Below are positions 9,097-43,802 of a stretch of DNA of 64,000 nucleotides, one piece after another. This DNA comes from a virus. Position numbers and translations under genes: made by a program. The notes beneath the pieces were generated by a model. The model was given only the letters and a program-made list of their open reading frames with translations, was not told where the DNA came from and ran no database searches. Numbering within the stretch: position 1 is the first letter of the stretch; every line of letters begins with the position of its first letter. The DNA lies in IMG/VR virus record IMGVR_UViG_3300021077_000115, positions 302,064-366,063 of that record; one strand, 5' to 3'.

Positions 9097-9500
9097 TAAC
9101 TAACCACCTTGCGCTTCTTGCGTTTTTTCTTCCCAACTTTATTGGACTCAAGAATTTGTTCACGAACCTTCTTGCTGGTTTCATCCAAATTCGTGGCCTG
9201 CACATTTGGATTCTCCTGACGGATCATTCCTTGAGCCATTTCAAGATTGGAGAAAGATCCAATAAGAATAGCCTGGTTTCTTAGCTTCTGAGCCTCTAGC
9301 TCTTGATCATGAAGCCAACTTTCATATAACCATACCTTTAAATATGCGTTAATATCCTCATAGAAAGGATCATCTGGCAACTTATGAAACAATTTCATTA
9401 GATATCTAATGAATTGATGCTCAGGTGTCCTGACCACTTTTGGAGATGGTTTCCGCCACCTCCTTCGCCTCTTCAACGGTCTTTGGAATATAACCGTCAT
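9096..9500 (-). CDS. Downstream (T-like) part of the tail assembly chaperone pair, probably expressed as a frameshift fusion; lysine-rich C-terminus.
   Basis: It overlaps the upstream ORF by 80 nt in another frame and has no SD of its own. It lies between the tube and tape-measure genes. Its DNA contains an A6 run (gggaagaaaaaacgcaag). Confidence 0.45.
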   Translation of the reverse strand: MTVIFQRPLKRRRRWRKPSPKVVRTPEHQFIRYLMKLFHKLPDDPFYEDINAYLKVWLYESWLHDQELEAQKLRNQAILIGSFSNLEMAQGMIRQENPNVQATNLDETSKKVREQILESNKVGKKKRKKRKVVS

Positions 9501-10080
9501 AGGTTTCTTGAGTTAAGGCTTCATAGTTGTTGAATAAATGGCTTATAAGCGCATGATCCATTTCATCAATCAGATCTTTACGAGCTAGTACTTGCTCCTC
9601 ATATGGAGAATTAGATGTACCAAGAATAATATCTATTGATTGATTATCTATCAAAAACAAAGAGTGCGACAGTGCTTCAACCCTAATTTTTGATAGGCTT
9701 GTTGGCGCGAATATCAATCGACCTTCCGAAGTTGTCAAACGCTCTGATTGTTCAACGACCTGAGCTAAGCAATTCTGCTCAAACGTCTTGAGCGTTCTCA
9801 AGCTGAAAACAACTGTGCCATTAGATGTGTCGATAGGAACATCTCTAGTCTTTCTCCCAAGTCCAGTAATAATATCTATACGACGCCTGGCATCACCAAG
9901 ACTCTTATTATCAATCTGTTCCTGATGCTCCTGGGCCTGCCTGCGTAATGTGCTGGCTAGCTCTGGAGTCATCTGAGCTGGTGGCGGCACTTGAGTTTCT
10001 TTGTCGTTTGAAACTACAAACCGCCTCTGTCCCGTTCCAGCGAAATTACTCTCACCAATTGTGCTGCTAATTCTACTCAT
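9421..10080 (-). CDS. Upstream (G-like) tail assembly chaperone.
   Basis: 219-aa ORF immediately after the tube gene. Its 3' end overlaps ORF 9096..9500. Confidence 0.5.
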   Translation of the reverse strand: MSRISSTIGESNFAGTGQRRFVVSNDKETQVPPPAQMTPELASTLRRQAQEHQEQIDNKSLGDARRRIDIITGLGRKTRDVPIDTSNGTVVFSLRTLKTFEQNCLAQVVEQSERLTTSEGRLIFAPTSLSKIRVEALSHSLFLIDNQSIDIILGTSNSPYEEQVLARKDLIDEMDHALISHLFNNYEALTQETYDGYIPKTVEEAKEVAETISKSGQDT

Positions 10081-10118
10081 AGATCACTCCTGTACAGCAC
10101 TATATATCAGGAATTTGA

Positions 10119-10769
10119 TTATGGAAGGATGTTATCAACCACATTAATCAAACCTGCTGCATCAAGAGAGCCACGGCGCTTTCCAAGATCTGTCTGCCTT
10201 TCAAATGCATCATTATCAATGATGGGAATCTGACGAGCATTTGGAGCAGGAACAACGTTCTGGCCTTGACCGAGATATGAATAAATATGCTCAGCTACCC
10301 AACCCATCGTTTCAGAAATAACATAATCAGAAACCTGATATGTAACTCCTAAGTTACGAATCCAAACATTCTTGATAACAGTGGTTATTACGTTATCTGA
10401 GCCATTGAATCCATCAGCATCGCTTTCGTCTGCTGCAAAAATATCCAGAATGACAATATCAAAAGGAATACGCTGAGAAGCGGCATGAATAAAGCCACGC
10501 GAAAATGCGGAAGCCATCCTCAAATTGTCGAATCTAACACGAGTGCAATCACCAGAAATATCAGTTGACTTCTGAGGAACTGAATCGATGTGGCCATCAG
10601 TTCCGACCTCATCTATCATATGAATGTTTCGGTCTTCCTTGTAGGATATGCTCTGGATAGCGCCGATTGGATTACCATCGACTTGAATAATGATCTCAGT
10701 TGAAACGCCCGTGCGGGTAACGTTACGACCTGCATCTGTAAGAATTGAACCAGTATGTGGATATACCAT
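10119..10769 (-). CDS. Putative tail tube protein (216 aa).
   Basis: It follows the sheath-like gene with a 14-nt gap, and its size and position are typical of a myovirus tube protein. Confidence 0.45.
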   Translation of the reverse strand: MVYPHTGSILTDAGRNVTRTGVSTEIIIQVDGNPIGAIQSISYKEDRNIHMIDEVGTDGHIDSVPQKSTDISGDCTRVRFDNLRMASAFSRGFIHAASQRIPFDIVILDIFAADESDADGFNGSDNVITTVIKNVWIRNLGVTYQVSDYVISETMGWVAEHIYSYLGQGQNVVPAPNARQIPIIDNDAFERQTDLGKRRGSLDAAGLINVVDNILP

Positions 10770-10783
10770 TTATCACCTTTAAT

Positions 10784-13249
10784 TTAGCTATTAAGCTTAC
10801 CAACGTTGATCAAAATATAAATCCAATTAGTTGGATATACTGGTTGAACAGCCACAGTAATATTCCACTGCCTTGGCTCTACTGAATCTCTATTTACAGT
10901 CAAACCTCCATAAGTAGTGATCAACCTCTGTTGAATGAAGGTTTGCATTAGAGACTGAGCAACAGCAAACAAAGTAGCTTTGAATGTTGGAGTCTCTGCT
11001 CGTCCAATGTATGGAGCGTAAGCTCTGCGCATAGAGAAGGAGATATAATCGCGAATAAATACAATGCTAATTTCCTCTTCAGTTGGCTCAAGAGAAGAAA
11101 CTGTCGTCTTGCCCCAGATTACATTACCACCACCCTGGACAGGAGTAAGTACAGTAATTCCAGAGTTTACGATATTTTCTACAACCAATGGAGAGAAAAG
11201 CTTGTTACGCAGAATACTAAATCCAACCAATCTCTTATTCGTAAGAGGTTCTTGAATTTGTGTATTACCAGAGAAATAACCTGCTACTGCCGCCGCAATA
11301 AAGAATCCGTCAATGAGAATGTTGTTTGCCCCAGCCTGAACGACAATCTGATCAGGATAGAAGTATACAACTCGGTACGAATCTCCAAATGCATCTGGAA
11401 CACTATAGTTAGCCAAATCCTCGGTATTTCCTACCAAAATATCCGCAACTGATGCGCCTTGAATACCTTCAAGAATACCGATGTCTTCAACTGCTGCAGG
11501 TTTATTACCAATTACATTATCCGGCGTAAGGCCCTGAATAGCGCCTATGAACAAAAGCCTTTCATGTTTATTGCGGATGTCGCTCTGTGTCTCAACATGC
11601 ACTTTTCCATTCTGGAAAATAGCACTAATCGTCTGGCTTGGTAGAGGCACAACCATATCGATATCGATTGCTTCCGCTGCTGTATAAGCTTCTAGCCATC
11701 CGGCATCATAAAAGTCAGCGTCCTTGGCATCTATTAAGGTGCAACGTAGCGACTGACCAAGGCTAAGTGCCATGTCTCTGGTCCAAAGGATTCGAGCACT
11801 AGATAATGATGAATCAACAACTTCGAACTGAATACCATTCTCACTAACAAATGGGGTGGCACGCTTGATTTTTAGCTGATCTTGAACAACTGCAACAATC
11901 TCAAATGTTCCATCGTTTCCATTTATAGAATCGAATATTACCACCGAGCGTGTAGCGGCAAGGTCTTCAAGGCCAAACGCAACGGTAGCACTTGATAGCT
12001 GAGCATAATAACCATCTACCAAGTAGCCATCGCTTACCAAAACACCATCAGCTCCTTCTTTTTGTACCGAAGACTCTTCGACAACCGTATAGGAATATGC
12101 AAAGTTATCCAAGAATGTAGCTGGATTTTCTGTGTAGAAAGGCTCCTTATTTGGAATAATTTGAGTCTCTAGCTTGGTAACTGGATCAGTTACAAAGAAA
12201 TGAATATCGTTATCAGAATCTGGGGTAACATTCAAAGGAAGAATGAATGTAACATCATCAACATCATTGAAGCCATCGGCTGATTTAACAAGATCATATG
12301 ATAAGCGTCTTGGAACTGAAGGCTTGGCTTGAATTGTATAGATGCCAGGAGTTCCGTTTGCCCATGCTAATTGAGCACCCAACGATACTCTATTGGTAAC
12401 CGATGGTTGTCCATGCTTTGCAATTACAGCATTCAAATCTGAGAAGAACTGTGGATCATTGAGTGATGCAAAAGAGATATAACGAGCAGTAAGATTATCT
12501 CCACTTACCAAAGTTCCGCTTTGAACTTCAACAACAAAGTTGTCTCCTTCAATGAACGGCGTAGCGCCTTCCGAGATTGAAAAACTCAAAACTCCATTAG
12601 AAATAAGTATTCCATTTGATTGCCAAGTGATTTGATTTCCGTAACCGTCTAGTAGAGTTCCGCTTACCGAACCACGAGCAATAAACTTTGCGTAACCATC
12701 GATTGGTTGTCCCATCGAATTTCGACGAACGCTTGAGCAACGAATCGTCCAAGTTTCTGGCGGGGCATTCACATCAACGAGCGTCAGATTTGAGATAGTT
12801 CCATTTCCAGAATTGCTTCCAGCCGCCAAATAGAACGAGCCTCCCTGATCTACTAATGAAGCACCCTGCAACAAAATCTCTCCAGTTGTTGGGTCTACCT
12901 CGGCATCATATCCGGGGAAGTTCCCATCAATGGTATGTTCAAACACCTTAAGTGTGATACCATTCTTGAAAAGCAAAGATCTGTTTTGAACAACTGGAGC
13001 TACGACAGTCTGCCCTTTCCCAAAAAGGAAGCGACGCCCATCAGAGCCTTTGGTTGTGGAATAAGTTGGGTCAAACCCATCGTTGCCCTTGCCATTAGCT
13101 GATCCAACAAGAACTTCTTCCGTTAAACCTTCACCAATAATAACTGGTATACGATTACCAACTGGTACGCTAACACCGGTCTGAATCGTTCTGGTTTCGG
13201 AATACGCACCAGGTACAACGCTAGAGGCTCCAGGTATGTCGGCTGCCAT
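10784..13249 (-). CDS. Putative contractile tail sheath protein (821 aa) carrying an inserted DGY-containing domain that is paralogous to a fibre-gene domain.
   Basis: The N-terminus (DIPGASSVVPGAYSETRTIQTGVSVPVGNRIPVIIGEG) resembles the PGVY-type sheath N-terminus. A strong SD (ATGAGGTGGTC) precedes the ATG. The internal segment LDGYGNQITWQSNGILISNGVLSFSISEGATPFIEGDNFVVEV is homologous to a segment of 22572..24665. Confidence 0.5.
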   Translation of the reverse strand: MAADIPGASSVVPGAYSETRTIQTGVSVPVGNRIPVIIGEGLTEEVLVGSANGKGNDGFDPTYSTTKGSDGRRFLFGKGQTVVAPVVQNRSLLFKNGITLKVFEHTIDGNFPGYDAEVDPTTGEILLQGASLVDQGGSFYLAAGSNSGNGTISNLTLVDVNAPPETWTIRCSSVRRNSMGQPIDGYAKFIARGSVSGTLLDGYGNQITWQSNGILISNGVLSFSISEGATPFIEGDNFVVEVQSGTLVSGDNLTARYISFASLNDPQFFSDLNAVIAKHGQPSVTNRVSLGAQLAWANGTPGIYTIQAKPSVPRRLSYDLVKSADGFNDVDDVTFILPLNVTPDSDNDIHFFVTDPVTKLETQIIPNKEPFYTENPATFLDNFAYSYTVVEESSVQKEGADGVLVSDGYLVDGYYAQLSSATVAFGLEDLAATRSVVIFDSINGNDGTFEIVAVVQDQLKIKRATPFVSENGIQFEVVDSSLSSARILWTRDMALSLGQSLRCTLIDAKDADFYDAGWLEAYTAAEAIDIDMVVPLPSQTISAIFQNGKVHVETQSDIRNKHERLLFIGAIQGLTPDNVIGNKPAAVEDIGILEGIQGASVADILVGNTEDLANYSVPDAFGDSYRVVYFYPDQIVVQAGANNILIDGFFIAAAVAGYFSGNTQIQEPLTNKRLVGFSILRNKLFSPLVVENIVNSGITVLTPVQGGGNVIWGKTTVSSLEPTEEEISIVFIRDYISFSMRRAYAPYIGRAETPTFKATLFAVAQSLMQTFIQQRLITTYGGLTVNRDSVEPRQWNITVAVQPVYPTNWIYILINVGKLNS

Positions 13250-13975: not shown

Positions 13976-14785
13976 TTACAAAGCCTCGATTTGATCCAGA
14001 ATCGATATGGACTCACTTATTGCAATATTGGGATTTGTAACGGTTTCAGATCCCCATGCCCTGAAATCTACGCAAAAATTGATACGCTCTACTATATTTT
14101 CTATTGGAATTAGGCGTCTCCACTCTGTACGAATATCCACGGTAATGGTTGCTTTGTAGAGTTTATCTTGTTGCCTATCTTCGCCTTCAGAAATTCCGCC
14201 AAGGGTTGGCTGCCCAGATTTCACTAACACACCGGCTTTTCTCAAACTATCAAATCTGATATCGGTAAAAAGCAGCATCACCATACTTACCAAATTATCC
14301 CTATCTAAAATATCTCGGCTTATTACATCAATTGAAATTGTGCCTTCCCATGCACCGGCAAGGTCAATATATTTTGGAATGAAGAATTCTTTAGCATTAC
14401 CGTAGCCATCAACTACGAGTTGCTTTTCATGTTCCACCACATCCCTATTTCTGTTTATTGAAATAGGAACGGATCTGGCCGAAATCATTTTTACCAGAAG
14501 AGCAGGGTAGAATATTGCATCGAACCTGAACGCCTCGCCGATGAAGATACGAGTGGTTTGTTCATCATTATTGAGTCCCGCCTCTAATGACAGATCTGTA
14601 TGATCAGGAACTTTTGGATAGCCCCACTCATCAGCTACATAATGAAACCAAGAATCCTTCGCAAACTCTTCCCGGAGCATCCCGATGATGAGTTCCTTAG
14701 GATAGGCCATCAGGGTGTTTTGAACAACATGATGGATCTGGTTCAGGTCATGCCTTACAAAGCTTCCAGTTCCCGGGGTGGTCAT
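13976..14785 (-). CDS. Structural protein (269 aa), possibly a baseplate component.
   Basis: ORF with an ATG start, lying between the 1691-aa gene and the HNH gene. Confidence 0.45.
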   Translation of the reverse strand: MTTPGTGSFVRHDLNQIHHVVQNTLMAYPKELIIGMLREEFAKDSWFHYVADEWGYPKVPDHTDLSLEAGLNNDEQTTRIFIGEAFRFDAIFYPALLVKMISARSVPISINRNRDVVEHEKQLVVDGYGNAKEFFIPKYIDLAGAWEGTISIDVISRDILDRDNLVSMVMLLFTDIRFDSLRKAGVLVKSGQPTLGGISEGEDRQQDKLYKATITVDIRTEWRRLIPIENIVERINFCVDFRAWGSETVTNPNIAISESISILDQIEAL

Positions 14786-14818: not shown

Positions 14819-17800
14819 TTAGCCAAAGAATGGTCTTGGCCTATAAATTGTGATATTTGCCCACTTTGGATTTGATACATATACATTACTTACAGTTATA
14901 AATCCAGTAGTTGTAGCCCCACCGACATATACATTGAGATCAAAAAAACCATCGGAAGCCATTACGTGATGTATTGGCATTATCACGGTATACGTACCAG
15001 GAGTAAGTGGAGACATACTATATGTCTCCACTGGTACGGAATTTTCCGACGCAGCTGCGCTCAAAAACAAATCGCCACCTGATGGTACGAAAACCCTTAG
15101 ATAAATTTCTGCAAAGATAGTATCGCCAGTCAAAAGACTTGTAGAATACTTAACATCATTTGATGATGTATCAGGTAGCGCTGTTGTTGGGATTGTTACC
15201 GGAGCCGTTGGGCTTTGATATGCAATTCTATTATTTCCAAAAGCTAAGCCATTGGTCGTAATTATATATTGGTCATCTATAACAAGATGACTGAAAGCAT
15301 TATCTCGCACCACGCTGTTTGGAGCATGAATCCAACCACCAAAACCAAGCGTGCCATTCTGATGCTCTAACGTATTTCCAACAACTACTGTAGGTTGCTC
15401 TGTTGCTATCGGGGGAGTAAAGAAATATATTCCCCAGCCATTTGTTGGAATATTCTTTATAACGTTACCAGTGATTGTGCCACCACAACCCCAAATTGTT
15501 AGGTTGTAATCGAATCCATCAATCTGGTTTCCTGAGCATACAACAGAACCACCATCATTACTAGTAATAATTAGGCCAATTGGCGTAAATGGATTTGGGG
15601 GGCCTGGAATCGGTATAAGCGACAAGAACATTCCTGTATAACCAAGAATGACAACATTTCCAGACACAACACTCTTGAATAATCCACTACTAGAAGTAGC
15701 ATCAGCCTTCAAGAAATATGCATGGTTGTTAGTTACAATATTCTCAACCGGGAACTCTGGTACATCTGTAACTCCAATGCCATATGTATATGGAGCCGCA
15801 AAGATATTTGCCGTTGCAGAAACGCCAGAATAAATAACCTCGGCTATATTATCCTGCACAAAGAATGATCCGCTCATAGCAACATTGAATGGACTTCCCT
15901 GAACCATCCATCCTATGTATCCGAACCTGTTATTTCGAATGGATACATTAGAAACCAAAGCTCTGCTGCGTTGAAGATACTGTCCAGCATTAAGGTTATC
16001 TGGAATCCATCTTGATGTGATAATCATTCCCTGTTGAGCATCAACAGTATTTCCTGATATTACAGTATCTATAAATAACTGACCATCATTAGCTGGGTCT
16101 GTTTCTGTATTTATAAAAGCAAGTGCCAAAGCAGTAGTCGAATTACCAAGGCCAACTGGCGTGCCACCAACAACAACAGTTCCACTATCAGAAAACCTAT
16201 TGTTTGTAAATTTTCCGTTAGCAAACTCAGACCCATTTCCATAAACAGCTATGAATGGAGGCCTTTTATTTGAATCTGCAAAGAAAACACAATTATCCAC
16301 TCCATAGTTATCAATGAATCCAAGATTGACCATATCTACCAATACAGCTCCCCAGTTTCCATCAGTGCCTGTCAGGCCAATCGCGCTGGTATTGAAGAAC
16401 TCATCAGGATATGTAGTCGCATAGCTAGAAAATGAAGCATCACGGTGTGGATGGTAATTTATAGTAGCTTCTTCAATTCTCCAATTACCACTCTTAAATG
16501 ATAGCCCTTTGGCGCTATTTATCTCGTATGTTCCACCTTTAAGTGTAACAAAATTATTGAAGGCTAGTTGCATCTCGGAATTGATCGTTACAGTTTTGAC
16601 CTTTACCTCAGCAACTCCATATTCATTCACCCAGTTCACCAAAGCCTGTGGAGTAATAAAGTTGGCATTGTATCCGGCAACTTGTTCCGTTGATGCCCAG
16701 GTGAAAGAACCGATATCCTGGTTGATGACATGTCTACGGGCATCAGTCACCAACAATGAAGAGAAGCCACCAGGATCTCCAATAGTTACCATGGCTTTAG
16801 CTATAATTGTAAGGTCTTTCCTAGTATCTACAATATTTCTAAATGACAGAGATTCCACAAAGTATAGGCTATTTACCTCAAAGAATTCTACACCGGTATC
16901 TTTTACAATGGCTTTTAGCTGTCCCGTTTCAGTCACGCAAATGAAGAACTCAACAACGTTAGTGATAGAAGATCTAACTTCTGGCAGTTTTACTTCTAGA
17001 GAATCAACCGGAACAAATGCGCCATTTACAAGCGCCATACCACCATTAAAGGTTAGCACGGAATTTGTAGCATCTGAAAATCCAAACGTAAAGCCTCTAA
17101 CAACACCATTGGTATGAAGATAACGCTCACCAGCCTCAATAAATTTGATAGCTGAATCTGTAAAGTTTTCCTCTGATAATGTACCAAATTCTCTCAAATC
17201 TGTAACAGACATGAAAGCTTGATCATTGTGACTTACACCGGCTATAACGAAGTATTCCTCATTCTCTATTAGACTACCGAATAGCTCAATGTACGTCCAT
17301 CCCAAGGATGGTATCGTGGTACCAGGATCAGCAACATCGTCTCTAAACTCAATATCAATGAAATTAACAAAGGTAACATCATAAAGTCTAATTATGGAAT
17401 TCTTCTTACCATTGACAACATTACCAATATTTGCGCCATTCAAATCGCTAAGGTATATAGTAAATTCACCAGTTGATGAGTTGTATCCAATAACGTTAAG
17501 TGTAATGTAATTGCGGAAATTAGAGCCGCCATAACCCTTCAACTTTGGTGAGACTCTTCGAATATTCCATCCGGAAAGACCAGCAACTCCAGTGCCTCCA
17601 ACACCACCAGATGCTGCACCTGGTATACCTGGCGTGTTAGTAATGCTATCACTCTTGGGAATTCTAGCGCGCTCAACAGAAACAGACTTACCAAGGTTAT
17701 TTATGAATACTTCATGATAGTGGTTGTATCCTAACGGATCGTCACCGACCATATTATTCAAATTGAAAAATACAGAATCATCTGAAAGATAAATCTTAAC

Positions 17801-19894
17801 AGGGCTAGGAATACTAGATAGTGTAGGATCCCCCGTTCCATGAACACCATTTATAACTGTAATGTCTGTTTCTCCAACACCACCACAAGTGAACGAAACA
17901 CTATCAATAATAAATCTTCCATATGCTGTAATATCTGGATTAGTAGGATCTATAGGTTGAACCACAATGGTTCTTCCAGCATTCAACCCCTCAGTTGCCA
18001 GATCTAATGGAATGGTATATTTTACTGCGTTTGGATAACCAGTTACATTACTAGCTGTGGCAACCCAATATCCATCACCTTCGGTAAATCTTGGCTTTGC
18101 CAAAGAGTCTCTACGATTTCCATTGACAAAAACATTACGCCCACTAACAGGCATAATGATTAGCGTTGAAAAGTTTGCTGCTGCATCAGCACTTGCAAAA
18201 GTACCAATATGGACCGGGGTTGCAAAACCAGCACGGTGTCCACCAAGGCCTAATGCGTCATTGCCATCAACCGCATCTCCTACAACATTTCTTACATATA
18301 TTCCTGGCACCAGTGATAGTGGCGGGGCGTATTGGCCAGAAATAATGCTAAAGGCAGCTCCTCCAATAGAATCCGCCAGCATAACACCAAACTCACCCTT
18401 GTAATTGAATGCAATAAAACGATAATTGTATCCGGCCTTTCTGAATTGTTTATTTGTCTCCTCAACAATGATATCAAGATTATATTTACCAGGAGTTGCT
18501 CCAGCATTTCCAGTAATATCGATAGGGGCCAAATTTACAAAAGAAGATGGATTTCCATTTGGATACAATCTAAGATACAACAAGTAATGAGTTGCATCTA
18601 TCTTATTAGCATCAAAACCAATACCAATAGCTACAGCTCCGCGCGGACTTCCTAAAATAACACTATCAACACGAAGGTCTGAAGATATACTGGTATCTGG
18701 GTGAGCACCGGCCGCTGCAACAACGCCCCAAGTATCAATATTGAAATTTGGGCGATCAATTCTAGCAGATCCAAAGTATCCGTCAGTCCCATCGGCTCTA
18801 AATAGATTTGTTGATGTGACTCTAACAGACCAAGAAGATCCTGGCACAAAATTAATGGACTTTATTGGAAGCATTGCCTCAACGCCAAAGCCGTAATTAA
18901 TCCTAACAATATCTCCAACTTTTACATTTGTAAATATATTATCAAAAGAGAAGCTTGTATTTGTTGGGATGAATGTTATAACATCATCTCCGTTTCCTAT
19001 GTTATCATTTGGAGCCAACTGACTAGGCTCTGCCAAATATGCCTGAACTTTTGTTACTGGCACAACATTTACTGTGTATCCATCAGACATCAAGTCTTGA
19101 ATTAGTGCCTTCCTAGAAATTCCATTTGAATTTAGAGTTGCCCGATCAACCCCAATAGATAGGGTTTCTTGATTATCAATGAAATCTAGAGCCTCTTGAA
19201 CATTTTGTGTGGTTACTGGAAGCTGCACGAATGTAGAGGCATCCACAGAAATAGCAGCTGCTGTATGAGCTAGAGCTGTAGCATTTTCGTGCCCAACCAA
19301 CTCATTATTTATCTCAAGCAATGCTTCGGCGACTTGCGTGGCTGGACGAAGATGATTGTTTCTATCTAATAAACCAGTCCACGAATAAGTATCCCTGGAA
19401 TCAACATGCACTGCATTTATGTCAATATGGCTAGCAACATGTCTCGCTTTAGTCAAATTATCTACGAGAAGTACGCCACCAGAAATATGAATTAGCAAAT
19501 TGCTGTTTTCTTCTGCTACAAGCTCTTGAACCAATGCAAGTTGAGACTCAGCCACTGTAATAGCCGAATGCAAATCTGTGGTGGAATAACTCAGGGCAAG
19601 CTTTGTCTCTTGAATTCCGGCATTTGACCCAACTTGATTATCGCTAATTGGAAGAGTAGCCAAACCAATAGCTTGCAAAGCCTCTGCTCTAGCATTGCCA
19701 TCAGGGCCAATTAGAACAGAAATACGATCATTCACGCTAGACTTCGATCCTTGCGGATTGATACCAAGCGTTTTCTCAATTGCAAAAACGGCATCTCTAA
19801 GTTGATTGATAGCCTGAGTACCAAACTCAGAGAGATTGTCATCAATCCTCAAAATTGTCGTATCATTATCTAATGAATTTGGATATCTTATCAT
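14819..19894 (-). CDS. Very large (1691 aa) tail fibre or baseplate structural protein.
   Basis: 5.1-kb ORF with several DGY motifs and beta-rich Gly/Asn/Thr-rich composition. Confidence 0.6.
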   Translation of the reverse strand: MIRYPNSLDNDTTILRIDDNLSEFGTQAINQLRDAVFAIEKTLGINPQGSKSSVNDRISVLIGPDGNARAEALQAIGLATLPISDNQVGSNAGIQETKLALSYSTTDLHSAITVAESQLALVQELVAEENSNLLIHISGGVLLVDNLTKARHVASHIDINAVHVDSRDTYSWTGLLDRNNHLRPATQVAEALLEINNELVGHENATALAHTAAAISVDASTFVQLPVTTQNVQEALDFIDNQETLSIGVDRATLNSNGISRKALIQDLMSDGYTVNVVPVTKVQAYLAEPSQLAPNDNIGNGDDVITFIPTNTSFSFDNIFTNVKVGDIVRINYGFGVEAMLPIKSINFVPGSSWSVRVTSTNLFRADGTDGYFGSARIDRPNFNIDTWGVVAAAGAHPDTSISSDLRVDSVILGSPRGAVAIGIGFDANKIDATHYLLYLRLYPNGNPSSFVNLAPIDITGNAGATPGKYNLDIIVEETNKQFRKAGYNYRFIAFNYKGEFGVMLADSIGGAAFSIISGQYAPPLSLVPGIYVRNVVGDAVDGNDALGLGGHRAGFATPVHIGTFASADAAANFSTLIIMPVSGRNVFVNGNRRDSLAKPRFTEGDGYWVATASNVTGYPNAVKYTIPLDLATEGLNAGRTIVVQPIDPTNPDITAYGRFIIDSVSFTCGGVGETDITVINGVHGTGDPTLSSIPSPVKIYLSDDSVFFNLNNMVGDDPLGYNHYHEVFINNLGKSVSVERARIPKSDSITNTPGIPGAASGGVGGTGVAGLSGWNIRRVSPKLKGYGGSNFRNYITLNVIGYNSSTGEFTIYLSDLNGANIGNVVNGKKNSIIRLYDVTFVNFIDIEFRDDVADPGTTIPSLGWTYIELFGSLIENEEYFVIAGVSHNDQAFMSVTDLREFGTLSEENFTDSAIKFIEAGERYLHTNGVVRGFTFGFSDATNSVLTFNGGMALVNGAFVPVDSLEVKLPEVRSSITNVVEFFICVTETGQLKAIVKDTGVEFFEVNSLYFVESLSFRNIVDTRKDLTIIAKAMVTIGDPGGFSSLLVTDARRHVINQDIGSFTWASTEQVAGYNANFITPQALVNWVNEYGVAEVKVKTVTINSEMQLAFNNFVTLKGGTYEINSAKGLSFKSGNWRIEEATINYHPHRDASFSSYATTYPDEFFNTSAIGLTGTDGNWGAVLVDMVNLGFIDNYGVDNCVFFADSNKRPPFIAVYGNGSEFANGKFTNNRFSDSGTVVVGGTPVGLGNSTTALALAFINTETDPANDGQLFIDTVISGNTVDAQQGMIITSRWIPDNLNAGQYLQRSRALVSNVSIRNNRFGYIGWMVQGSPFNVAMSGSFFVQDNIAEVIYSGVSATANIFAAPYTYGIGVTDVPEFPVENIVTNNHAYFLKADATSSSGLFKSVVSGNVVILGYTGMFLSLIPIPGPPNPFTPIGLIITSNDGGSVVCSGNQIDGFDYNLTIWGCGGTITGNVIKNIPTNGWGIYFFTPPIATEQPTVVVGNTLEHQNGTLGFGGWIHAPNSVVRDNAFSHLVIDDQYIITTNGLAFGNNRIAYQSPTAPVTIPTTALPDTSSNDVKYSTSLLTGDTIFAEIYLRVFVPSGGDLFLSAAASENSVPVETYSMSPLTPGTYTVIMPIHHVMASDGFFDLNVYVGGATTTGFITVSNVYVSNPKWANITIYRPRPFFG

Positions 19895-36437: not shown

Positions 36438-36448
36438 TTGATACTCCT

Positions 36449-38400
<1,952 letters not shown>

Positions 38401-38790
38401 TTACGTTCCTATATGCCAAATATGAACGTCTACAGTACCAATACCAGCAAAATATATCTCATTCTCTCCTCTTGGTCCAAAGTCAAGAGTTTGCCCAGAG
38501 CTAATACGCCCATGGATATTGTAACCAGAGAAAGAATATATTACGTCTGTTCCGCTAACACCAACCAACATTATTCTACGAGCCCCGCGAAAAGCTGTAC
38601 GAACTTGAGGTGTTATTGGGAAAAGCGGATAGTAACCGTCATAGCCATCATAAGGTGTTCCTATCGGCGCAACATATCCATCACCCCATGTACCACTTGT
38701 TACAGATGTGTTTGTACTTACGACCTTAAAAAAATTGTAATCCTTTCCTGTATTAACTGGCTTGCCCATTATAACCTCAAATACATACAA
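38401..38790 (-). CDS. Small DGY-rich fibre-associated protein. The probable true start is the ATG at 38769, preceded by GAGGT.
   Basis: Contains GDGYVAPIGTPYDGYDGYYPL. The SD reads tttGAGGTtataATG. Confidence 0.45.
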   Translation of the reverse strand: MYVFEVIMGKPVNTGKDYNFFKVVSTNTSVTSGTWGDGYVAPIGTPYDGYDGYYPLFPITPQVRTAFRGARRIMLVGVSGTDVIYSFSGYNIHGRISSGQTLDFGPRGENEIYFAGIGTVDVHIWHIGT

Positions 38791-38851: not shown

Positions 38852-39685
38852 TCATGGCAAGCTCTGCCAAATTATATAGACAGTTACAGCTCCAGTTGTC
38901 GGAGAATTAGTTTCTGTTACATTTGCGAATATCGCCTGAGATGCTGGGTATATCGCTTCAAATCCAGTTGACTGAGACATATCACTGCCTAATGATGTTA
39001 GCGCAAATCCGCCAACAATAGATCCTACCGCTACAGATGGTATTATTGTTTGAGAAACAACTATTTGCTGCCCACCAGAAGTGGAGCCTATACTAATCGC
39101 TGAGCTAGGACTACCGCCACCAGTAATTGCTGTCTTCACTCTCAAATCAATTGATATCAATTTCCATCGACCGGAACCAGATGGACTAGAAGTCCTAGTA
39201 TCAATAAGAGTATTGGCAGTAGTTGTAAGATCAATATCAAAAGAAACAGCTATATATGGAGATGGAGCCGCTTGACCAAGACGAGTATCTATTCTTGCAA
39301 TATGTTCGCCAATATATCCGTCTATCGGAGGTGCATAGTTAACTGGTAAATATGATAGCTCTATAAAGTATCCATCAACAGGATCACTTCCACCAGCCTC
39401 ATGGGTGCTTGCGTGTGTTGCTGGTGTTCTTGAATTTACATAACCTATCGTCGCATAACCATCGATAGCTAAAAGAATTTCATTATCCACAGCCTCTACC
39501 ATTTCCAGGGCGGCTGAATACCCATCCAATACAGCTCCTAGGCCATCAAGTTTAACCTTATCTGCGGCTGACATTTCTCCATTAGCTAATTGAGAAGAAA
39601 GAAGACTTGGATCTTTGTAATTTATTGTACCCATAAAACCCCTCGCACATGCTGGCGTAGCCGCTGGTTTATCAACAACATACAA
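38852..39685 (-). CDS. Tail fibre protein (277 aa) carrying the same conserved module as the collagen-like fibre.
   Basis: HEAGGSDPVDGYFIELSYLPVNYAPPIDGYIGEHIARIDTRLG aligns with [43 protein letters not shown]. The listed start is TTG. Confidence 0.55.
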   Translation of the reverse strand: MYVVDKPAATPACARGFMGTINYKDPSLLSSQLANGEMSAADKVKLDGLGAVLDGYSAALEMVEAVDNEILLAIDGYATIGYVNSRTPATHASTHEAGGSDPVDGYFIELSYLPVNYAPPIDGYIGEHIARIDTRLGQAAPSPYIAVSFDIDLTTTANTLIDTRTSSPSGSGRWKLISIDLRVKTAITGGGSPSSAISIGSTSGGQQIVVSQTIIPSVAVGSIVGGFALTSLGSDMSQSTGFEAIYPASQAIFANVTETNSPTTGAVTVYIIWQSLP

Positions 39686-39705: not shown

Positions 39706-41873
39706 TTATTGAGCATAGATGCTGTATACATCATTATTTCCTGATTCAGCCACAAGCGATACAGCATTGAGTCCAGTAAGTGATAGGTTTGAAATTACGA
39801 AGGAAGCTCCATTGCCTGTATATGACAAGGTGTTATCAGCTGTAGCCATCCAGATTGTGGCTACATTTGTGGCCATATCTGGTGCAAGCATGACACAATC
39901 TACAGAACCATCAGCATTAACCGTTGCATAGCCTGAAGCCCCACCAACAACTGTACCTAAGGCACCGGTGATCAGGTTGAAGTTGGCAAATCCAGAGCCT
40001 CCACCTACTGCTAAAGCCACCCAATTTCTACCGGTTGGCTTGATACGCACTCGGAAGACAACTGGTCCTCTCACATAACCTGGTATTGTACCAACCACAG
40101 TAGATATATCATGACCGCCAGTGCTATTATCCTCTACCAGTGTTGTGTTGTTCCAAGAAGCGACTCCTGCATCAATAAGGAATGAAAGAGTGCCTGTCAC
40201 AGCCATTGTGCTTGCTACAAGCGAATAGCTTGGTATTCCATGAGCCGAGCCACCAGGAGCCGTTCTCGCCAAAGATACAGAGCTATTAGGGGTAGTCCAA
40301 GGCGCTGGAAAGAATACTGGCGTTGTTCCGTTTAGCGTGACCGAACCACTATTAGTGTAGCGGAACTGTGTTCCCGCCGGATTTGGTGGCGTTACTAAAT
40401 TAACTTTACCGTATGTAACAATATTTCCTGAACCTATAGAGTTAATATTTTCAGGCACAGCTAACTGTCCTCTAACGTTTCTGATGTCTAAACTGTGGCC
40501 CGACACTCCAGTAGTAACCAAGGTAGTTGAACTATCCACAATTAATGCATCGACAATATTATCTTTGCTGATACAAGCATCACCATAGATGATACCTGCT
40601 GAGATTCCGGACACAAGCAACTTCCCAAAGTGGTTTCTGTTGCACCCAAGAGTTCCATTTGCACCCAAGACTACGAGCGCTGTAACTAGACCTGGAGTTT
40701 GTGCACTCGCATTCAAGTCTGAGATATCATTATCACAGAAATCAGAGCCAGTCCAAAACACGCCTGCAGTACCAATTACATTGACAGCCTTGAGTCCGCG
40801 AATCGTATTTCGATGGCACCCACACTCATCTGCTGGGATATCAATATTGATCGAAGTTGCGATAAATGGTCCACAGCAGTTCTCACCAGTGGCCCCATCA
40901 ATAGTTGAATCTCAAGTAGTATTTAACCATACCGTGTATCCAATATTCTCACTCTTGACATTGCGAACAACAGCACCACGTTGCCCTTCGATAGCAAACC
41001 CAGAACGATTCGAATCAGTGCCATCCAACCCTATCGTAATAACATTATCAACCAAGTTATCTCTACCACTAATATCAAAGCCAACTAGTGAGGTACTGGA
41101 TGTTCCTGCTGTTTGCTGGATAATTCCAGGACCAATTACTGAGCATCTCCAAACAGAGATCAACTCAATGAATCGATTGTCCGCATAGGAACCATCAAAA
41201 GCACATAAAATTTTGGCATTATTCAACTTTACATTGAAATTGATTACTGGTGAATATTTATAAATGTTACTTGCAGGTATGGAGAACAATACAGGGGCAT
41301 CCAAATTGACAGTTGTGCCAACAACCGATATTGCCTGAAACGAGACCCGTGCACCTTTGTTCGTACTGATCCAAAAATAATCTCCAGCTACCAATGGTGT
41401 ACCAGACCATGTAACTGTGAGACTATTAACTCTAGCCGCAGTAGCTCCAATAGATCCTATTGTGGCGGGAGTTCCTGGGTTGGCTACAATCGGGCAAGTT
41501 CCAAGACCAAAAGTAGTAGTTGTAATTATCGTATTTCCATTAAGATCTAGCGTAATATTAGAACGATATTTCCATTAAGATCTAGCGTAATATTAGAACG
41601 AGCAGCGATAATGGTGTGATTACAAATATAAGGAAGTGTAGATTTTCTCAACTTTACGGTAGATCCATAAGGTGCCGCTTGTACAATTGTATTGATTGCA
41701 GACCAGTCATCTGTTGTCGAACCATCAATTGGAGGCCCAGCCCAAACGATTACGGAATCATTTCTAGAAACATAACCATCTGATATGTTATTAAGCTTGA
41801 TGCTATCTTCCGCTTGAAAGAAACCAAAAGATTCTTCCTTCACATGTCCCGGGAATTTCTGGAATTTAGACAA
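39706..41873 (-). pseudogene. Disrupted tailspike or tail-fibre gene (about 710 codons if repaired) with an N-terminal anchor domain and a beta-helix-like body. It is broken by a 35-bp tandem duplication (frameshift) and an in-frame TGA.
   Basis: Three co-directional ORFs span it: 41547..41873, 40912..41394 and 39706..40761. The first two differ in frame by +2, which equals 35 mod 3. The last two are in the same frame and are separated only by TGA at 40912-40914. The N-terminus matches the 1167-aa fibre. Confidence 0.55.
41532..41601 (-). repeat. Exact 35-bp tandem duplication (2 copies) inside the tailspike gene, causing a +2 frameshift.
   Basis: TATTTCCATTAAGATCTAGCGTAATATTAGAACGA occurs at 41532-41566 and again at 41567-41601. 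Confidence 0.9.
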
Positions 41874-41943
41874 GTTAACCTCAAATATTTAGCTCCATAT
41901 ATTTACTTACAACAATGATATGCAAAAATATTCGTTGCATAAA

Positions 41944-41975
41944 CAAAAAGCCCCGGTTTGCACCGAGGCTCTCTG
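41944..41975 (-). terminator. Rho-independent terminator immediately downstream of the putative major capsid gene.
   Basis: On the minus strand: GCCTCGG-tgcaaa-CCGGGGC followed by TTTTTGTTT. One G.U wobble, extendable to about 10 bp. Confidence 0.6.
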
Positions 41976-42002
41976 TATTCATTTTGAACTAACTAGCTAG
42001 CA

Positions 42003-43049
42003 TTATCCGACGATTGTTGACTTGCGAGAAGCAGCAACGGCGCGTGGGTTCACGATACCGATACCAATCTCTTCCGACACAACCCATCCTAGTTTTAACT
42101 GTTTTGGTTCATCAGCTGGGATAACTTCGATGTCCTGACGGATTGGAAGCACACCAACGAACTCTGGGTCAGAGGCACCGTAGACTGTTCCTGGTGGAAC
42201 GATCTTCGAAACCATAATGTCAGCGCCCCAGATGTGAGCATACAGACCTGTCTGAAGAATCTCACGCTGCGTAACTGGATCAATTTCACCAGCCGAGGTT
42301 CCGGAAGATGCCCAGTTAAGGATGTCCGTAAACTCATTGATGTTCATGAAGTACTTCGTTGTTACAAGGTCCCAACGATCAATCTGAACCTTGATCTCAA
42401 CCAAGTCTCTCTTCAACAGACCGCTGTCTGTGATGTCCTGCAACGTGTTTTCAACACTCGATGCTGCGTCGATAGCCGCAAAGATGTTTGCATCTTCTTG
42501 AGCCATCAATTCTTGACGGGCCTTTTGAACGGCACGGTCAATAACGTTGAATCGACGACGACGAACCTCAGAGATACGAACTGTTGGGTTCGAATAAAGC
42601 TCGAACGTTGGCACAACGATACGATCACCGAACACACGAGACTCACCACCGGTACCATTGCTGGAAATGACGGTAGCTGCTACGTCAATATCACGCTCAT
42701 ACTTCGGGTCAACGCCTTGTGGAAGAGGATCAACCACCAACAGACGACGGGCAATTCCCTGATAATCCAAGTTACGACGAATTGGGTTCGCCATAGCCTG
42801 AGCAAGAGCAAGCTTTCCTTCCTGTGTCATAATCGCACGAGCAATAAGCTCATCGCGCTTTTCGTCATTCAAACCTGGTTGGCCCGAAAGAGCCATATTT
42901 GAAGGCTGGCCCTCTTCGAGGATCGCAGCGTACTTAACTAGCGTATTCAATGCATCCTTTACGGATGTGGCATTCATACCACCACGGGTATCAAATAAAG
43001 ACATATATAATCTCCTAATGTTTGTTTGTAAGCTGCCAAAATCCATCAA
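42003..43049 (-). CDS. Putative major capsid protein (348 aa). The track start is TTG at 43049 and ATG is the second codon (43046..43044).
   Basis: A GC-rich hairpin lies upstream and a strong intrinsic terminator downstream, consistent with a highly expressed gene. Size and composition fit a small HK97-fold coat protein, and it follows a decoration-like gene (lambda-like D/E order). No diagnostic motif was recognised. Confidence 0.45.
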   Translation of the reverse strand: MMDFGSLQTNIRRLYMSLFDTRGGMNATSVKDALNTLVKYAAILEEGQPSNMALSGQPGLNDEKRDELIARAIMTQEGKLALAQAMANPIRRNLDYQGIARRLLVVDPLPQGVDPKYERDIDVAATVISSNGTGGESRVFGDRIVVPTFELYSNPTVRISEVRRRRFNVIDRAVQKARQELMAQEDANIFAAIDAASSVENTLQDITDSGLLKRDLVEIKVQIDRWDLVTTKYFMNINEFTDILNWASSGTSAGEIDPVTQREILQTGLYAHIWGADIMVSKIVPPGTVYGASDPEFVGVLPIRQDIEVIPADEPKQLKLGWVVSEEIGIGIVNPRAVAASRKSTIVG

Positions 43050-43063
43050 CAGCTAGCGGAAGA

Positions 43064-43084
43064 GGAGGGGAATTCCACCCCTCC
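43064..43084 (-). promoter_or_regulatory. Perfect 7-bp stem-loop, 14 nt upstream of the putative capsid gene start.
   Basis: GGAGGGG-(7 nt)-CCCCTCC. The 5' arm is SD-like. There is no canonical SD adjacent to the start codon. Confidence 0.4.
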
Positions 43085-43103
43085 AAATCCATATATCGAT
43101 CAA

Positions 43104-43802
43104 TTATGTAAGCGGAGGCGAGAAGTAGAACAGAGCACGGAATGCTCCACCACTTGGGTTCAGGATTGTTCCTGATGGGCTCAAGGCAGCCGTTACCAAT
43201 GTGACCGGGGTTGTTACCAAGCTTCCACCCTTATAAGATTCGAAGTTCAAGAACCTTCCGACAATTGCATAACCATCAGAGTCAAAGTTCACCGAAGCGT
43301 TAGGTGTCAACAGACCAGCAGCCGTTGCGTACAACGGAGCACCAATCTTGAGGCTTGAGTTAGTTGGTACCAAGCCCGTGAGGACCGTGGTGTCAACTGC
43401 ATCCAAAGTCACAGCGTATGTACCTGGCTTGTCCCACAGAGTGACCTTGCCAGAAGCGTATGCCGTGTGTGGGCCCAAGTTAACTGCTGGAGCCTGTCCC
43501 AGACCATATGAATACTGTCCGGCGATTCCACCAATTAATGAACCAAACAAAGTTCCATATCCAAAGATACCTTCGTCAACCAACATAAGAGGACGATCAC
43601 CAGGAACCAAAACCGTAGTAACAACTGGTCGAGATGTTCCTACGTATCCGTCCTGATTCACATCAGCAGCTGCTTTATCAGCAGTGCGTGATACACCCTT
43701 AATCGTCGCGACTTCTCCACCCTTTAGGGTGATATAGATACCATCTGCGCCGTCAAATTGTCCTAGCGGTTGAATGCCAGGCTGAACAAGTTCTAATGCC
43801 AT
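43104..43802 (-). CDS. Putative head decoration or Ig-like surface protein (232 aa).
   Basis: A weak SD (aggaaataattATG) precedes the ATG. It lies immediately upstream of the putative major capsid gene in the same operon. Contains DGY motifs (NQDGYVGTS, DSDGYAIVG). Confidence 0.4.
   Translation of the reverse strand: MALELVQPGIQPLGQFDGADGIYITLKGGEVATIKGVSRTADKAAADVNQDGYVGTSRPVVTTVLVPGDRPLMLVDEGIFGYGTLFGSLIGGIAGQYSYGLGQAPAVNLGPHTAYASGKVTLWDKPGTYAVTLDAVDTTVLTGLVPTNSSLKIGAPLYATAAGLLTPNASVNFDSDGYAIVGRFLNFESYKGGSLVTTPVTLVTAALSPSGTILNPSGGAFRALFYFSPPLT

Follow-up and report, generated by a model that had tools for sequence, protein, structure and literature searches.

An uncultured clade of jumbo myophages has a strong excess of the tripeptide Asp-Gly-Tyr in its tail, fibre and baseplate proteins

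The tail module in the 64,000-nucleotide stretch of phage DNA analysed here (the window) raises the question why a single tripeptide, Asp-Gly-Tyr (DGY), should recur in so many of its proteins. DGY occurs 45 times in 13 ORFs of the minus strand, which carries all long ORFs of the window, and every copy lies inside 9421..43802 (10,899 aa), where 2.13 copies are expected from composition, a 21-fold excess. An earlier note on this DNA had estimated some 40 copies, a 25-fold excess and at least twelve proteins, which agrees within rounding, and had asked for a count against shuffled proteomes of related phages; in 2000 per-protein shuffles of the present sequences the mean was 2.15 (sd 1.46) and the maximum 9. 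The remaining 9,341 aa of the window contain no copy (1.1 expected). In a ranking of tripeptides DGY comes first by far (Poisson 6e-43), followed by HHH with 6 occurrences versus 0.1 expected, and the other five orders of the same three residues occur 1-6 times apiece. Once the 45 copies are subtracted, DG (60 versus 60.7 expected) and GY (35 versus 35.8) are at expectation, so the tripeptide itself is the unit. This excess, which amounts to about 15-20 times chance over the tail, fibre and baseplate proteins and a single capsid-adjacent one, is real and undescribed.

The earlier note placed the selection on the peptide and not on a DNA word, and the nucleotide pattern agrees. GAYGGNTAY is found 45 times in the coding frame; the region has one further copy in another frame, and the plus strand has none. 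The codons used at DGY are mixed and match the general usage of the same genes. In-frame, one-strand occurrence and mixed codons rule out a DNA-level word such as a restriction, uptake or packaging signal. The carrier proteins, together with the domains and tracts discussed below, are as follows.

9421..10080, minus strand: unannotated protein of 219 aa directly downstream of the putative tube gene, identified by position only; 1 DGY (aa 195)
10784..13249, minus strand: tail sheath of 821 aa (PHROG tail sheath); 4 DGY (aa 184, 201, 407, 412)
12491..12820, minus strand: sheath accessory beta-domain (aa 144-253; DSSP on the model) that has a pair of DGY corners at a spacing of 17 residues (DGYAKFIARGSVSGTLLDGYG)
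13976..14785, minus strand: tail-module protein of 269 aa, identified by position only; 1 DGY (aa 126)
14819..19894, minus strand: unannotated tail or baseplate protein of 1691 aa, identified by position only; 3 DGY (aa 271, 371, 607)
22572..24665, minus strand: baseplate or spike-like protein of 697 aa with a Cys/His tract and C-terminal HxH motifs; 7 DGY
23649..23963, minus strand: paralogue of the sheath accessory domain (aa 235-339 of the preceding protein); DGY at 270, 287 and 329
26969..30472, minus strand: fibre or spike of 1167 aa with SASA esterase (Pfam, E = 3.2e-7) and ConA/LamG-like (Laminin_G_3, weak) domains; 7 DGY including an N-terminal SDGYVS
30484..31389, minus strand: protein of 301 aa; 9 DGY
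31195..31296, minus strand: tandem or near-tandem tract with 6 DGY in 34 aa, followed by a His/Cys-rich indel
36449..37090, minus strand: fibre-module protein of 213 aa; 1 DGY (aa 62)
37042..38391, minus strand: collagen-like tail fibre of 449 aa (PHROG tail fibre, E = 3e-27); 2 DGY
38401..38790, minus strand: small fibre-associated protein of 129 aa; 3 DGY, with a tract at 38632-38682
38852..39685, minus strand: fibre protein of 277 aa; 4 DGY
41547..41873, minus strand: N-terminal fibre fragment with the SDGYVS anchor; 1 DGY
43104..43802, minus strand: protein of 232 aa adjoining the major capsid gene, called decoration-like from its position alone; 2 DGY

The strings quoted earlier are indeed present (DGYGNWLDGYGYLLPDGYYSDPPDGYYPDGYDGY at 31195-31296, DGYVAPIGTPYDGYDGY at 38632-38682), as are the four copies in 38852..39685 and the SDGYVS N-terminal anchors in 26969-30472 and 41547-41873.

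The DGY excess is a trait of an uncultured jumbo myophage clade. The tail, fibre and capsid-adjacent families of this clade hold 579 copies versus 39.3 expected, rank 1 of 3,740 tripeptides. The excess is still 14-16-fold among highly divergent representatives, and with increasing relatedness it rises gradually from 1.7-fold in the most distant relatives to 12-fold and to 21-fold in the present phage. It is found in the orthologues of the sheath (175 versus 11.5 expected), of 9421..10080 (15 versus 1.0), of 14819..19894 (210 versus 14.9) and of 22572..24665 (29 versus 1.4), in the family of 13976..14785 (52 versus 4.0), and in 75 orthologues of the capsid-adjacent protein 43104..43802 (102 versus 3.4). 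Conservation of single sites varies. Counting the window itself, the site of 9421..10080 reads DGY in 14 of 51 aligned sequences (13 of 50 orthologues) and that of 13976..14785 in 45 of 57 (44 of 56 orthologues); D51-G52-Y53 of the capsid-adjacent protein is invariant in 48 homologues; searches with this last protein in Pfam, PHROG, NCBIfam and the PDB gave no match. No DGY occurs in the major capsid protein (3.3 expected), the tube (2.4) or four conserved head-side proteins (about 7).

One ordinary explanation, which the earlier note held would settle the matter, is the amplification of one Ig-like domain family. Anchored flank scoring gave four clear paralogous segment pairs and left 28 of the 45 sites as singletons, and an all-against-all hhalign comparison of 17 families recovered the same four pairs and His/Cys tracts, and nothing else. 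A single amplified domain family is ruled out by this limited flank and profile homology, and the motif does stand in otherwise unrelated domains, as had been proposed. The sheath accessory domain matches aa 235-339 of 22572-24665 with an hhalign probability of 99.3%, and the N-terminus of the collagen-like fibre, which has both its copies in an HxxxHxxGGxDP-x-DGY segment there, is paralogous to 38852-39685. Across 363-383 non-redundant contexts there is no flank consensus around DGY.

Where the motif sits in the chain can be read from the models. The sheath model (AF2, pLDDT 84; Foldseek matches to the phi812, phiCD508 and T4 sheaths) has its DGY in accessory domains only, the conserved core (aa 500 onward) having none. 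The structural check of turn placement covers five sites, those in confident AF2 regions, and in 5 of 5 a strand-to-strand loop holds the Asp-Gly or, between DGY407 and DGY412, the LVDG; the Tyr often begins the next strand. In the 301-aa protein, for example, confident only at aa 200-270, D208 and G209 are coil and Y210 opens the next strand. Coil Asp-Gly with a conserved Gly, as in a tight turn or helix C-cap, is thus what these five sites display, and the beta-turn put forward earlier fits, the Gly being usually kept in orthologues without DGY. In the fibres of relatives DGY brackets helical segments and short strands (e.g. AL-DGY-ATKAYV-DGY-AASI), with spacing peaks at 9, 17 and 27/29. Two copies in 38852..39685 likewise flank an 18-residue helical-type segment (L-DGY-SAALEMVEAVDNEILLAI-DGY-A), and its relatives have up to 12-15 copies bracketing such segments.

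The tandem tracts are predicted to be disordered. That of 31195..31296 (pLDDT 20-40) is kept in 12 homologues with variable copy number, and site 371 of 14819..19894 shows a (DGY)1-4 length polymorphism among relatives, reaching NL-DGY-DGY-DGY-DGY-ARIDR in one of them (L039). Although (DGY)n fits the Gly-X-Y register, a collagen triple helix is ruled out: the window has at most 2 consecutive units, spacing 3 is seen in 16 of 448 successive pairs family-wide, and the true collagen repeat of 37042-38391 is without DGY.

One rival reading is a backbone idiom, in which DGY would be the clade's preferred tight turn or helix stop (alpha-L Gly, Asx cap), without side-chain function and multiplied as small beta-domains and fibre segments were duplicated and shuffled. 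Besides its placement at turns and junctions and the four paralogous pairs, this reading is favoured by the strong phylogenetic inheritance of individual sites, by a mild excess in T4 structural proteins (3.6-fold), which suggests that part of the effect may be general to beta-rich virion proteins, and by the use of DGY-type turns in Kelch-like blades of unrelated contigs. We nevertheless regard it as possible but doubtful. The flanks of 28 of 45 sites lack similarity and no hidden common domain was found; the sheath copies occupy some 19 homologous alignment columns, and the 10 in which two or more sequences have DGY account for at least 29 gains or losses; and outgroup phages carrying the same genes have other residues in place of DGY.

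Over 50 DGY columns in 7 families we counted DGY 522, DGx 112, xGx 90 and xGY 12 times. With xGx and DGx as the common alternatives and xGY so rare, the Gly turn is older than the motif and Tyr is favoured only after Asp-Gly; Asp and Tyr are selected together. An idiom of the backbone predicts enrichment of NGY, DGF, DGV and DGI, but these are enriched about twofold at most or not at all: the family-wide ratios are 8.8 for DGY, 2.3 for DGF, 1.02 for DGV and 0.83 for both NGY and DGI, and EGY is not enriched. Thus the equivalent turn sequences (NG-aromatic, DG-Phe, DG-Val, DG-Ile) do not behave like DGY, and Phe takes the place of the Tyr in 0 of 112 cases. The Tyr hydroxyl therefore seems to be required. 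Selection seems to act on the displayed side chains, and not on the backbone turn alone, to judge from the coupling of Asp and Tyr, the lack of Phe and the recurrent gain of the motif at turns that were already there. Asp-Gly tight turns (type I'/Asx-turn) and Schellman C-caps resemble DGY in reversing the chain before a hydrophobic or aromatic residue, and in the Gly that is retained in orthologues without the motif. Generic turns, however, accept Asn-Gly and any hydrophobic follower, whereas here only D-G-Y is enriched (15-21-fold), Tyr is never Phe, and the excess is limited to one clade and one gene module.

Could the side chains serve a metal? Asp and Tyr, with a nearby His, might act as ligands of Ca2+ or Fe, either at the virion surface or along fibre axes. 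Two window proteins do have DGY tracts next to His-rich runs (DGYDGYSNHHHHHH, DGYDGYRHHH), the C-terminus of 22572-24665 has HxH motifs, and a few DGY of unrelated giant ORFs lie in dockerin-like DxNxDG loops. We scored EF-hand-like ligands with the DGY Asp as position 5 (D/N/S at 1 and 3, hydrophobic at 8, acidic at 12); at 363 non-redundant sites the score equals the compositional expectation and none reaches 4/4, so that a Ca2+ loop of the EF-hand or dockerin type, proposed in the earlier note as Ca binding, is rejected as a general explanation. Its more general suggestion of metal binding, in a His-linked form, fares no better, since at least three His within 15 residues are found at 3 of 821 DGY versus 56 of 6,814 other Tyr, which is not above other Tyr, and His adjacency is confined to the two window proteins. 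A metal site is in our view highly improbable. HxH metal-binding motifs are known to recur in phage fibre and spike proteins (T4 gp37 and P2 gpV types). Like DGY they are very short and recur in unrelated proteins, and both are present in the window; HxH lines the trimer axis and binds Fe or Zn, whereas DGY has no association with His or Ca ligands and occurs also in non-fibrous domains.

Our preferred reading, to which we tentatively assign a probability of roughly 0.35, is that DGY is a generic contact-forming corner displaying Asp and the Tyr hydroxyl. It would be a self-contained three-residue chain reversal, in which Asp-Gly makes the tight turn or ends a helix and the Tyr usually opens the next structural element. 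The clade would repeatedly have installed it in outward-facing virion parts only (sheath accessory domains, baseplate and fibre proteins, the capsid-adjacent protein), mostly at existing Gly turns, hairpin tips, junctions of helical fibre segments and in short tandem tracts. Once the virion is assembled, Tyr-tipped turns may hold adjacent chains or domains together, and in the outermost domains the corners could give weak multivalent contacts to a polysaccharide-rich host surface.

In engineered binding loops no residue is more prone to make contacts than Tyr, and hydrogen-bond rings of Asp and Tyr (the YxD motif) stabilise the stalks of trimeric adhesins. That short motif punctuates the segmented coiled-coil fibres of trimeric autotransporter adhesins much as DGY brackets helical segments and short ATKxYV strands in the relatives' fibres; yet residue order and spacing differ, there is no sequence homology, and DGY is also found in beta-sandwich accessory domains and in the capsid-adjacent protein. 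Judged by the identity of its carriers, DGY would be surface-exposed, and sheath accessory domains sit away from the tube contact (PMC9230969), in line with an outward placement of the sheath copies. The presence of glycan-directed domains in the same module (the SASA esterase and the weak ConA/LamG-like match) also favours the contact role. Ig-like accessory and decoration domains (Hoc-type; sheath accessory, PMC9230969) occupy the same places on the virion and have been proposed to mediate weak phage adhesion, the same logic of many weak contacts, but there the unit is a domain family and here it is a tripeptide spread over unrelated folds. Against the contact role, a tripeptide cannot form a binding site alone, the gradual rise in density and the mild under-representation elsewhere do not obviously follow from it, and the disordered tandem tracts and the excess in T4 also count against it.

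That under-representation bears on another reading, in which an enzyme of the clade or of the host would recognise D-G-Y on exposed virion turns and modify the hydroxyl of the Tyr, for example by glycosylation, phosphorylation or nucleotidylation. Sites would accumulate if a greater extent of modification is an advantage. In the other proteins of the clade DGY occurs 6 times versus 29.5 expected (0.2-fold, 29th lowest of 4,549 tripeptides), versus 0.93-0.95-fold in control non-structural regions of T4 and phage G, but with a dipeptide-aware null and strict de-replication this depletion outside the tail module loses significance (4 versus 5.7, P = 0.33). A context-free short motif with an apparently obligatory acceptor hydroxyl, as expressed in the missing flank consensus, the strict D-Y coupling and the zero Phe, is compatible with a sequon without proving one. 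The sites in loops and in tracts of varying copy number and the gradual climb in density within the clade agree with it as well.

Minimal sequons include N-x-S/T, the bacterial D/E-x-N-x-S/T and, in Bacteroidota, D-[ST]-[AILVMT]. In the bacterial N-glycosylation sequon, D/E-X-N-X-S/T, an acidic residue stands two positions upstream of the acceptor, as in DGY. Bacterial S-layer arrays are an established case of Tyr-linked glycans (PMC2943079). These and the minimal sequons share with DGY a context-free unit of 3-5 residues, an acidic residue shortly upstream of the acceptor (hydroxyl or amide), exposed turns of surface proteins and accumulating numbers. In DGY, by contrast, the acceptor would be a Tyr; and while the S-layer modification is co-secretional, the assembly of phage virions is cytoplasmic. 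A candidate modifying enzyme was not found within the 64-kb window and the literature gave no precedent for a D-G-Y sequon. Recognition by such an enzyme is unlikely in our judgement, and we hold it quite unlikely that D-G-Y is specifically a minimal sequon for covalent Tyr modification (e.g. O-glycosylation) that accumulates on sheath, fibres and capsid surface. The Tyr phosphatase-like gene to which the earlier note drew attention is real (Pfam Y_phosphatase2, E = 2.5e-14), but it is not co-conserved with the DGY trait: it has 2 close relatives in IMG/VR, where the same method found 168 for the sheath and 213 for the capsid, so that no link to the clade-wide trait is shown.

Few short motifs recur in phage tail proteins that are otherwise unrelated, and the known ones, such as HxH, had a specific chemistry. 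In a large clade that is widespread in the environment, no tripeptide of the tail, fibre and baseplate proteins is as over-represented as DGY, with some 380 independent sequence contexts and a 15-fold excess. As a contact or adhesion element, it would offer a simple sequence marker by which the outward virion surfaces of uncultured phages could be told; as a modification sequon, it would stand for a new kind of virion modification, whose accumulation may be likened to that of the glycan-shield sequons of eukaryotic viruses.

The genomes of the clade measure 200-480 kb, and in the present phage the fibre gene of 41547..41873 has been split by a 35-nt tandem duplication.

The window, from a myovirus-like phage, forms a head-tail module in which all long ORFs are on the minus strand. 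Counted in selected non-overlapping ORFs, the tripeptide Asp-Gly-Tyr (DGY) was found 45 times across 13 ORFs, all inside 9421-43802, and 0 times in the other 9,341 aa of the window. The composition-based expectation for 9421-43802 is 2.13 copies, and 2000 per-protein shuffles gave 2.15 ± 1.46 copies with a maximum of 9. No other tripeptide comes close to DGY in over-representation (Poisson 6e-43). The earlier note's counts and quoted examples proved correct on recount and translation. A local composition artefact is ruled out: the remaining five orders of D, G and Y have 1-6 copies each, and without the 45 DGY the dipeptides are at expectation (DG 60 vs 60.7 expected, GY 35 vs 35.8 expected; NG is not enriched). 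A DNA word is equally ruled out, since GAYGGNTAY is tied to frame and strand: 45 matches are in the coding frame, a single match in the region is in another frame, and the opposite strand has none; the codon choice in DGY is that of the carrier genes overall. Because DG and GY fall to expectation once DGY is removed, and the motif is in frame with mixed codons, the tripeptide itself is the selected unit, at the level of the peptide, as the earlier note had proposed. No description of a DGY motif or repeat in phages was found in the literature. The signal is genuine and strong and seems not to have been described before: a short motif of turn or recognition type that recurs across phage tail proteins.

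The following family matches were obtained in the module:

10784-13249, minus strand, tail sheath (PHROG sheath family match at the C-terminus; AF2 pLDDT 84)
26969-30472, minus strand, SASA carbohydrate-esterase domain protein that also matches ConA/LamG-like domains weakly
37042-38391, minus strand, collagen-like tail fibre (family match)
42003-43049, minus strand, major capsid protein (phrog_2522, E = 2e-76)

Foldseek matches of the sheath include the sheaths of phi812, phiCD508, T4 and Mu. Most other carriers have no Pfam, PHROG, NCBIfam or PDB family match, and their presumed roles follow from their place in the tail/fibre module. Solved-structure relatives were found neither for the 232-aa capsid-adjacent protein 43104-43802 (searched as a single sequence and as a 48-sequence profile), nor for the 277-aa fibre protein 38852-39685 and a DGY-rich relative fibre. 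Among deposited phages none is closely related at the DNA level; the nearest cultured sheaths (Bacillus phage G, Eggerthella LE2-3) share 27-29% identity in a match limited to the C-terminal core. Since identical or related proteins are present on metagenomic contigs of 200-480 kb, the phage belongs to an uncultured jumbo-phage clade.

The DGY excess extends to the relatives of the window.

Observed and expected DGY counts, or their ratio, in related loci, protein families and control regions
77 loci around sheath homologues: 523 observed, 59 expected
Sheath family: 175 observed, 11.5 expected
Family of the 1691-aa tail/baseplate protein (14819-19894): 210 observed, 14.9 expected
13976-14785 family: 52 observed, 4.0 expected
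Family of the 697-aa baseplate/spike-like protein (22572-24665): 29 observed, 1.4 expected
Capsid-adjacent 43104-43802 family: 102 observed, 3.4 expected
Capsid-gene loci, unassigned ORFs without window orthologue: 217 observed, 26.6 expected
Tube: 0 observed, 2.4 expected
Major capsid protein: 0 observed, 3.3 expected
Four conserved head-side proteins of unknown function: 0 observed, about 7 expected
1708-aa protein family: 1 observed, 9.0 expected
Control, Bacillus phage G tail region: 1.55-fold
Control, phage G non-structural region: 0.95-fold
Control, T4 structural region: 3.6-fold
Control, T4 non-structural region: 0.93-fold

DGY density is a graded trait of the clade. The excess drops as the sheath diverges, from 12.4-fold at a sheath identity of at least 75%, through 11.3-, 8.2- and 8.3-fold, to 4.1-fold at 39-44% and 1.7-fold at 38% or less. 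With gene classes set by position and annotation alone (DGY was not used), the motif is confined to the tail/fibre/capsid-adjacent module, where 579 copies were counted vs 39.3 expected (rank 1 of 3,740 tripeptides), an enrichment that is steady at 14-16-fold among mutually divergent representatives. All other genes of the clade have 6 vs 29.5 expected, the 29th lowest of 4,549 tripeptides. This depletion is 4 vs 9.3 (P = 0.045) in the divergent representatives and 4 vs 5.7 (P = 0.33) under strict de-replication with a dipeptide-aware null; given the latter value it is not robust, and we take it as suggestive. In the T4 locus (75-125 kb) the mild excess in structural proteins amounts to 10 vs 2.8; annotated genes account for 6 of the 10 (gp7, gp8, gp12, gp18, gp27 and UvsW, the last non-structural). 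There may be a modest preference for DGY in beta-rich virion proteins generally.

The carriers do not share one amplified domain. When flanks were scored anchored on DGY, with random positions in the same proteins as null, four clear paralogous pairs and a few low-complexity DGY/His-tract clusters emerged, and 28 of the 45 sites were singletons. Profile-profile comparison (hhalign) of the alignments of 17 tail-module families linked the sheath (aa 144-253) to 22572-24665 (aa 235-339), 37042-38391 (aa 2-69) to 38852-39685 (aa 70-137), 26969-30472 (aa 7-33) to 41547-41873 (aa 14-40), and the His/Cys tract of 22572-24665 to that of the 301-aa protein 30484-31389. One further N-terminal match is unrelated and joins two DGY-free proteins; beyond these five there were no other links. 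With so many singletons and so few links, the sites cannot be assigned to a single Ig-like domain family, and the "otherwise unrelated domains" of the earlier note are borne out.

In the confident regions of the AF2 models DGY lies in loops between strands, which fits the beta-turn suggested earlier. In the sheath, I-D-G-Y-A (183-187) and D-G-Y-G-N (201-205) form inter-strand loops and DGY407 is at a strand end; in the loop L-V-D-G that precedes Y414, the tyrosine opens the next strand. Likewise, the model of the 301-aa protein is confident in one part only, and there D208-G209 is a two-residue loop and Y210 opens a strand. In these models DGY thus sits at chain reversals. Its positions probably face outward. 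The sheath copies all precede residue 500, in accessory domains; minimal sheaths (about 350 aa) align to the sheath core only. Such accessory domains are placed away from the tube-contacting core, with suggested roles in adhesion or stability (PMC9230969). The fibres of relatives carry up to 15 DGY in 622 aa, with helical segments and short strands bracketed by the motif, e.g. AL-DGY-ATTAEVQAETNRAVAVEQTILTAL-DGY-GVPQSL-DGY. Family-wide, the spacing from one DGY to the next peaks at 3-4, 7, 9, 17, 27/29 and 42. The 1691-aa protein has one site with 1-4 tandem copies depending on the phage. In the 301-aa protein the tandem tract is conserved with variable copy number; it is modelled at pLDDT 20-40, so that the model gives no information on it.

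A backbone idiom alone, spread via module shuffling, would account for the location of DGY; it leaves both the residue specificity and the gains at homologous columns unaccounted for, and we consider it doubtful. At 50 alignment columns with DGY in at least two sequences, from seven orthologue families, the Gly-containing states were DGY 522, DGx 112, xGx 90 and xGY 12 (odds ratio 35). By these counts the Gly turn is usually older than the motif, with Tyr preferred only where Asp-Gly is already present. After DG, Tyr is replaced by L, V, A or T, and by Phe in 0 of 112 cases; Y-to-F is a one-base change and normally the commonest exchange of Tyr. Family-wide, NGY (0.83), EGY (0.73), DGV (1.0) and DGI (0.83) are not enriched, and DGF is enriched just 2.3-fold. 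Asp and Tyr are thus coupled with Phe excluded, and the pair of Asp carboxylate and Tyr hydroxyl is probably the selected feature. On a sheath tree built from the DGY-free core, ten DGY columns required at least 29 gains or losses, a count that recombination may inflate and that is far below that of random labels; the sites are therefore mostly inherited, with recurrent gain and loss. As judged from these alignments, DGY arose again and again at Gly turns that were already there.

DGY stands on its own as an in-frame tripeptide: the 865 family-wide sites reduce to 363-383 non-redundant flank contexts without consensus, and the flanks (hydrophobic residues just 1.2-fold at -1, charged residues 0.6-0.7-fold at ±1-2) equal those of generic DG sites. 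Such a context-free motif would suit a sequon for modification of Tyr, as would the need for a hydroxyl, the tandem tracts, the density gradient and the possible avoidance of DGY elsewhere. We nevertheless regard a sequon as unlikely. No candidate enzyme was identified in the 64-kb window, and no consensus for Tyr-glycosylation sites was found in the literature. The Tyr phosphatase-like gene of the earlier note (59603-60703) encodes a 366-aa protein that starts with a genuine Y_phosphatase2 (PTP-like) domain at its N-terminus, followed by an uncharacterised C-terminal part of about 240 aa. A link with DGY is not supported: the gene has just two close relatives, where the same method gave 168 for the sheath and 213 for the capsid protein, and it is thus a recent accessory gene, not a core gene of the clade.

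Our preferred reading, to which we give a probability of about one in three, is that DGY is a corner that forms contacts. Turns with Tyr at the tip would clasp adjacent chains and domains, and in the outermost domains they would give weak multivalent contacts to a polysaccharide-rich host surface. The earlier interpretation is partly supported: it holds for peptide-level selection, unrelated carriers and turn location; binding of metal or Ca is not borne out as a general role. An EF-hand or dockerin Ca loop is ruled out by a ligand-position score equal to composition, and a general His-linked metal site by the proportion of sites with at least three His within 15 residues (3 of 821 DGY sites vs 56 of 6,814 other Tyr). 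A metal site is very improbable and would at most concern the two His-tract proteins; a collagen-like helix applies at most to a few tandem tracts.

The His/Cys-rich tracts (HHHHHH; CFDGYHCHDHHRRHHHDCFH; CNCSEEHHCDKGHHCHCSERREHHCHCPEY), at 31000-31194 (30484-31389 aa 66-130) and about 24021-24110 (22572-24665 aa 186-215), look like metal-binding inserts in sequence; the tract, linked between the two proteins by hhalign, is an indel present in only some homologues. The C-terminal end of 22572-24665 has three HxH motifs. Oddly located amid the fibre genes are a NifS-like class-V aminotransferase/cysteine desulfurase (33133-34221, Pfam E = 3.6e-28) and a cold-shock-domain protein (31888-32166), with a homologue in just 2 of 80 capsid-side loci; they are possibly relevant to the Cys/His tracts.

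Few loci on viral contigs have tandem (DGY)n (45, of which 29 are in frame), and some in-frame loci are on unrelated low-GC contigs with LamG-like ORFs of 2,000-3,400 aa that are themselves DGY-rich. On five such IMG/VR contigs (L177, L199, L195, L197 and L162; GC 0.34-0.42) no homologue of a window protein could be detected; their LamG-like ORFs contain (DGY)3-5 tracts, the contigs are DGY-rich overall (e.g. 22 vs 0.9 and 19 vs 1.05), and dockerin-like DLNxDGxID loops are followed by AIDGY. Their DGY trait may have an independent origin. In cellular genomes (DGY)n is an ordinary 9-nt simple repeat, found for the most part in short frames or in the acidic linkers of high-GC actinomycetes; it is therefore uninformative about host or function.

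Two genes interrupt the tail module, HNH-like (13249-13935; homologues in only 12 of 77 related loci) and LAGLIDADG-like (21745-22557; only 4 of 77), a sparse distribution that fits mobile homing endonucleases. Within a minus-strand fibre gene, 35 nt are perfectly duplicated in tandem (41532-41601, 2.0 copies, 100% identity); as 35 nt is no whole number of codons, the anchor ORF 41547-41873 is frameshifted from its continuation 40912-41394, and the split may reflect a pseudogene, on/off variation or a variant of the assembly. The compositionally distinct stretch 55306-58767 (GC 0.45-0.475, AT skew down to -0.23) encodes an acidic Ala/Glu/Lys-rich protein of 1153 aa with two near-identical internal repeats (…YxGTEEPKPGxxQYSKDPLNEK…); it matched no family and may be a fusion of scaffold or protease type. 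Finally, 25728-26027 is a small hydrophobic ORF of 99 aa with a C-terminal PPPPPPPPG, and PPP ranks next in enrichment among tripeptides that occur at least 8 times in the region.
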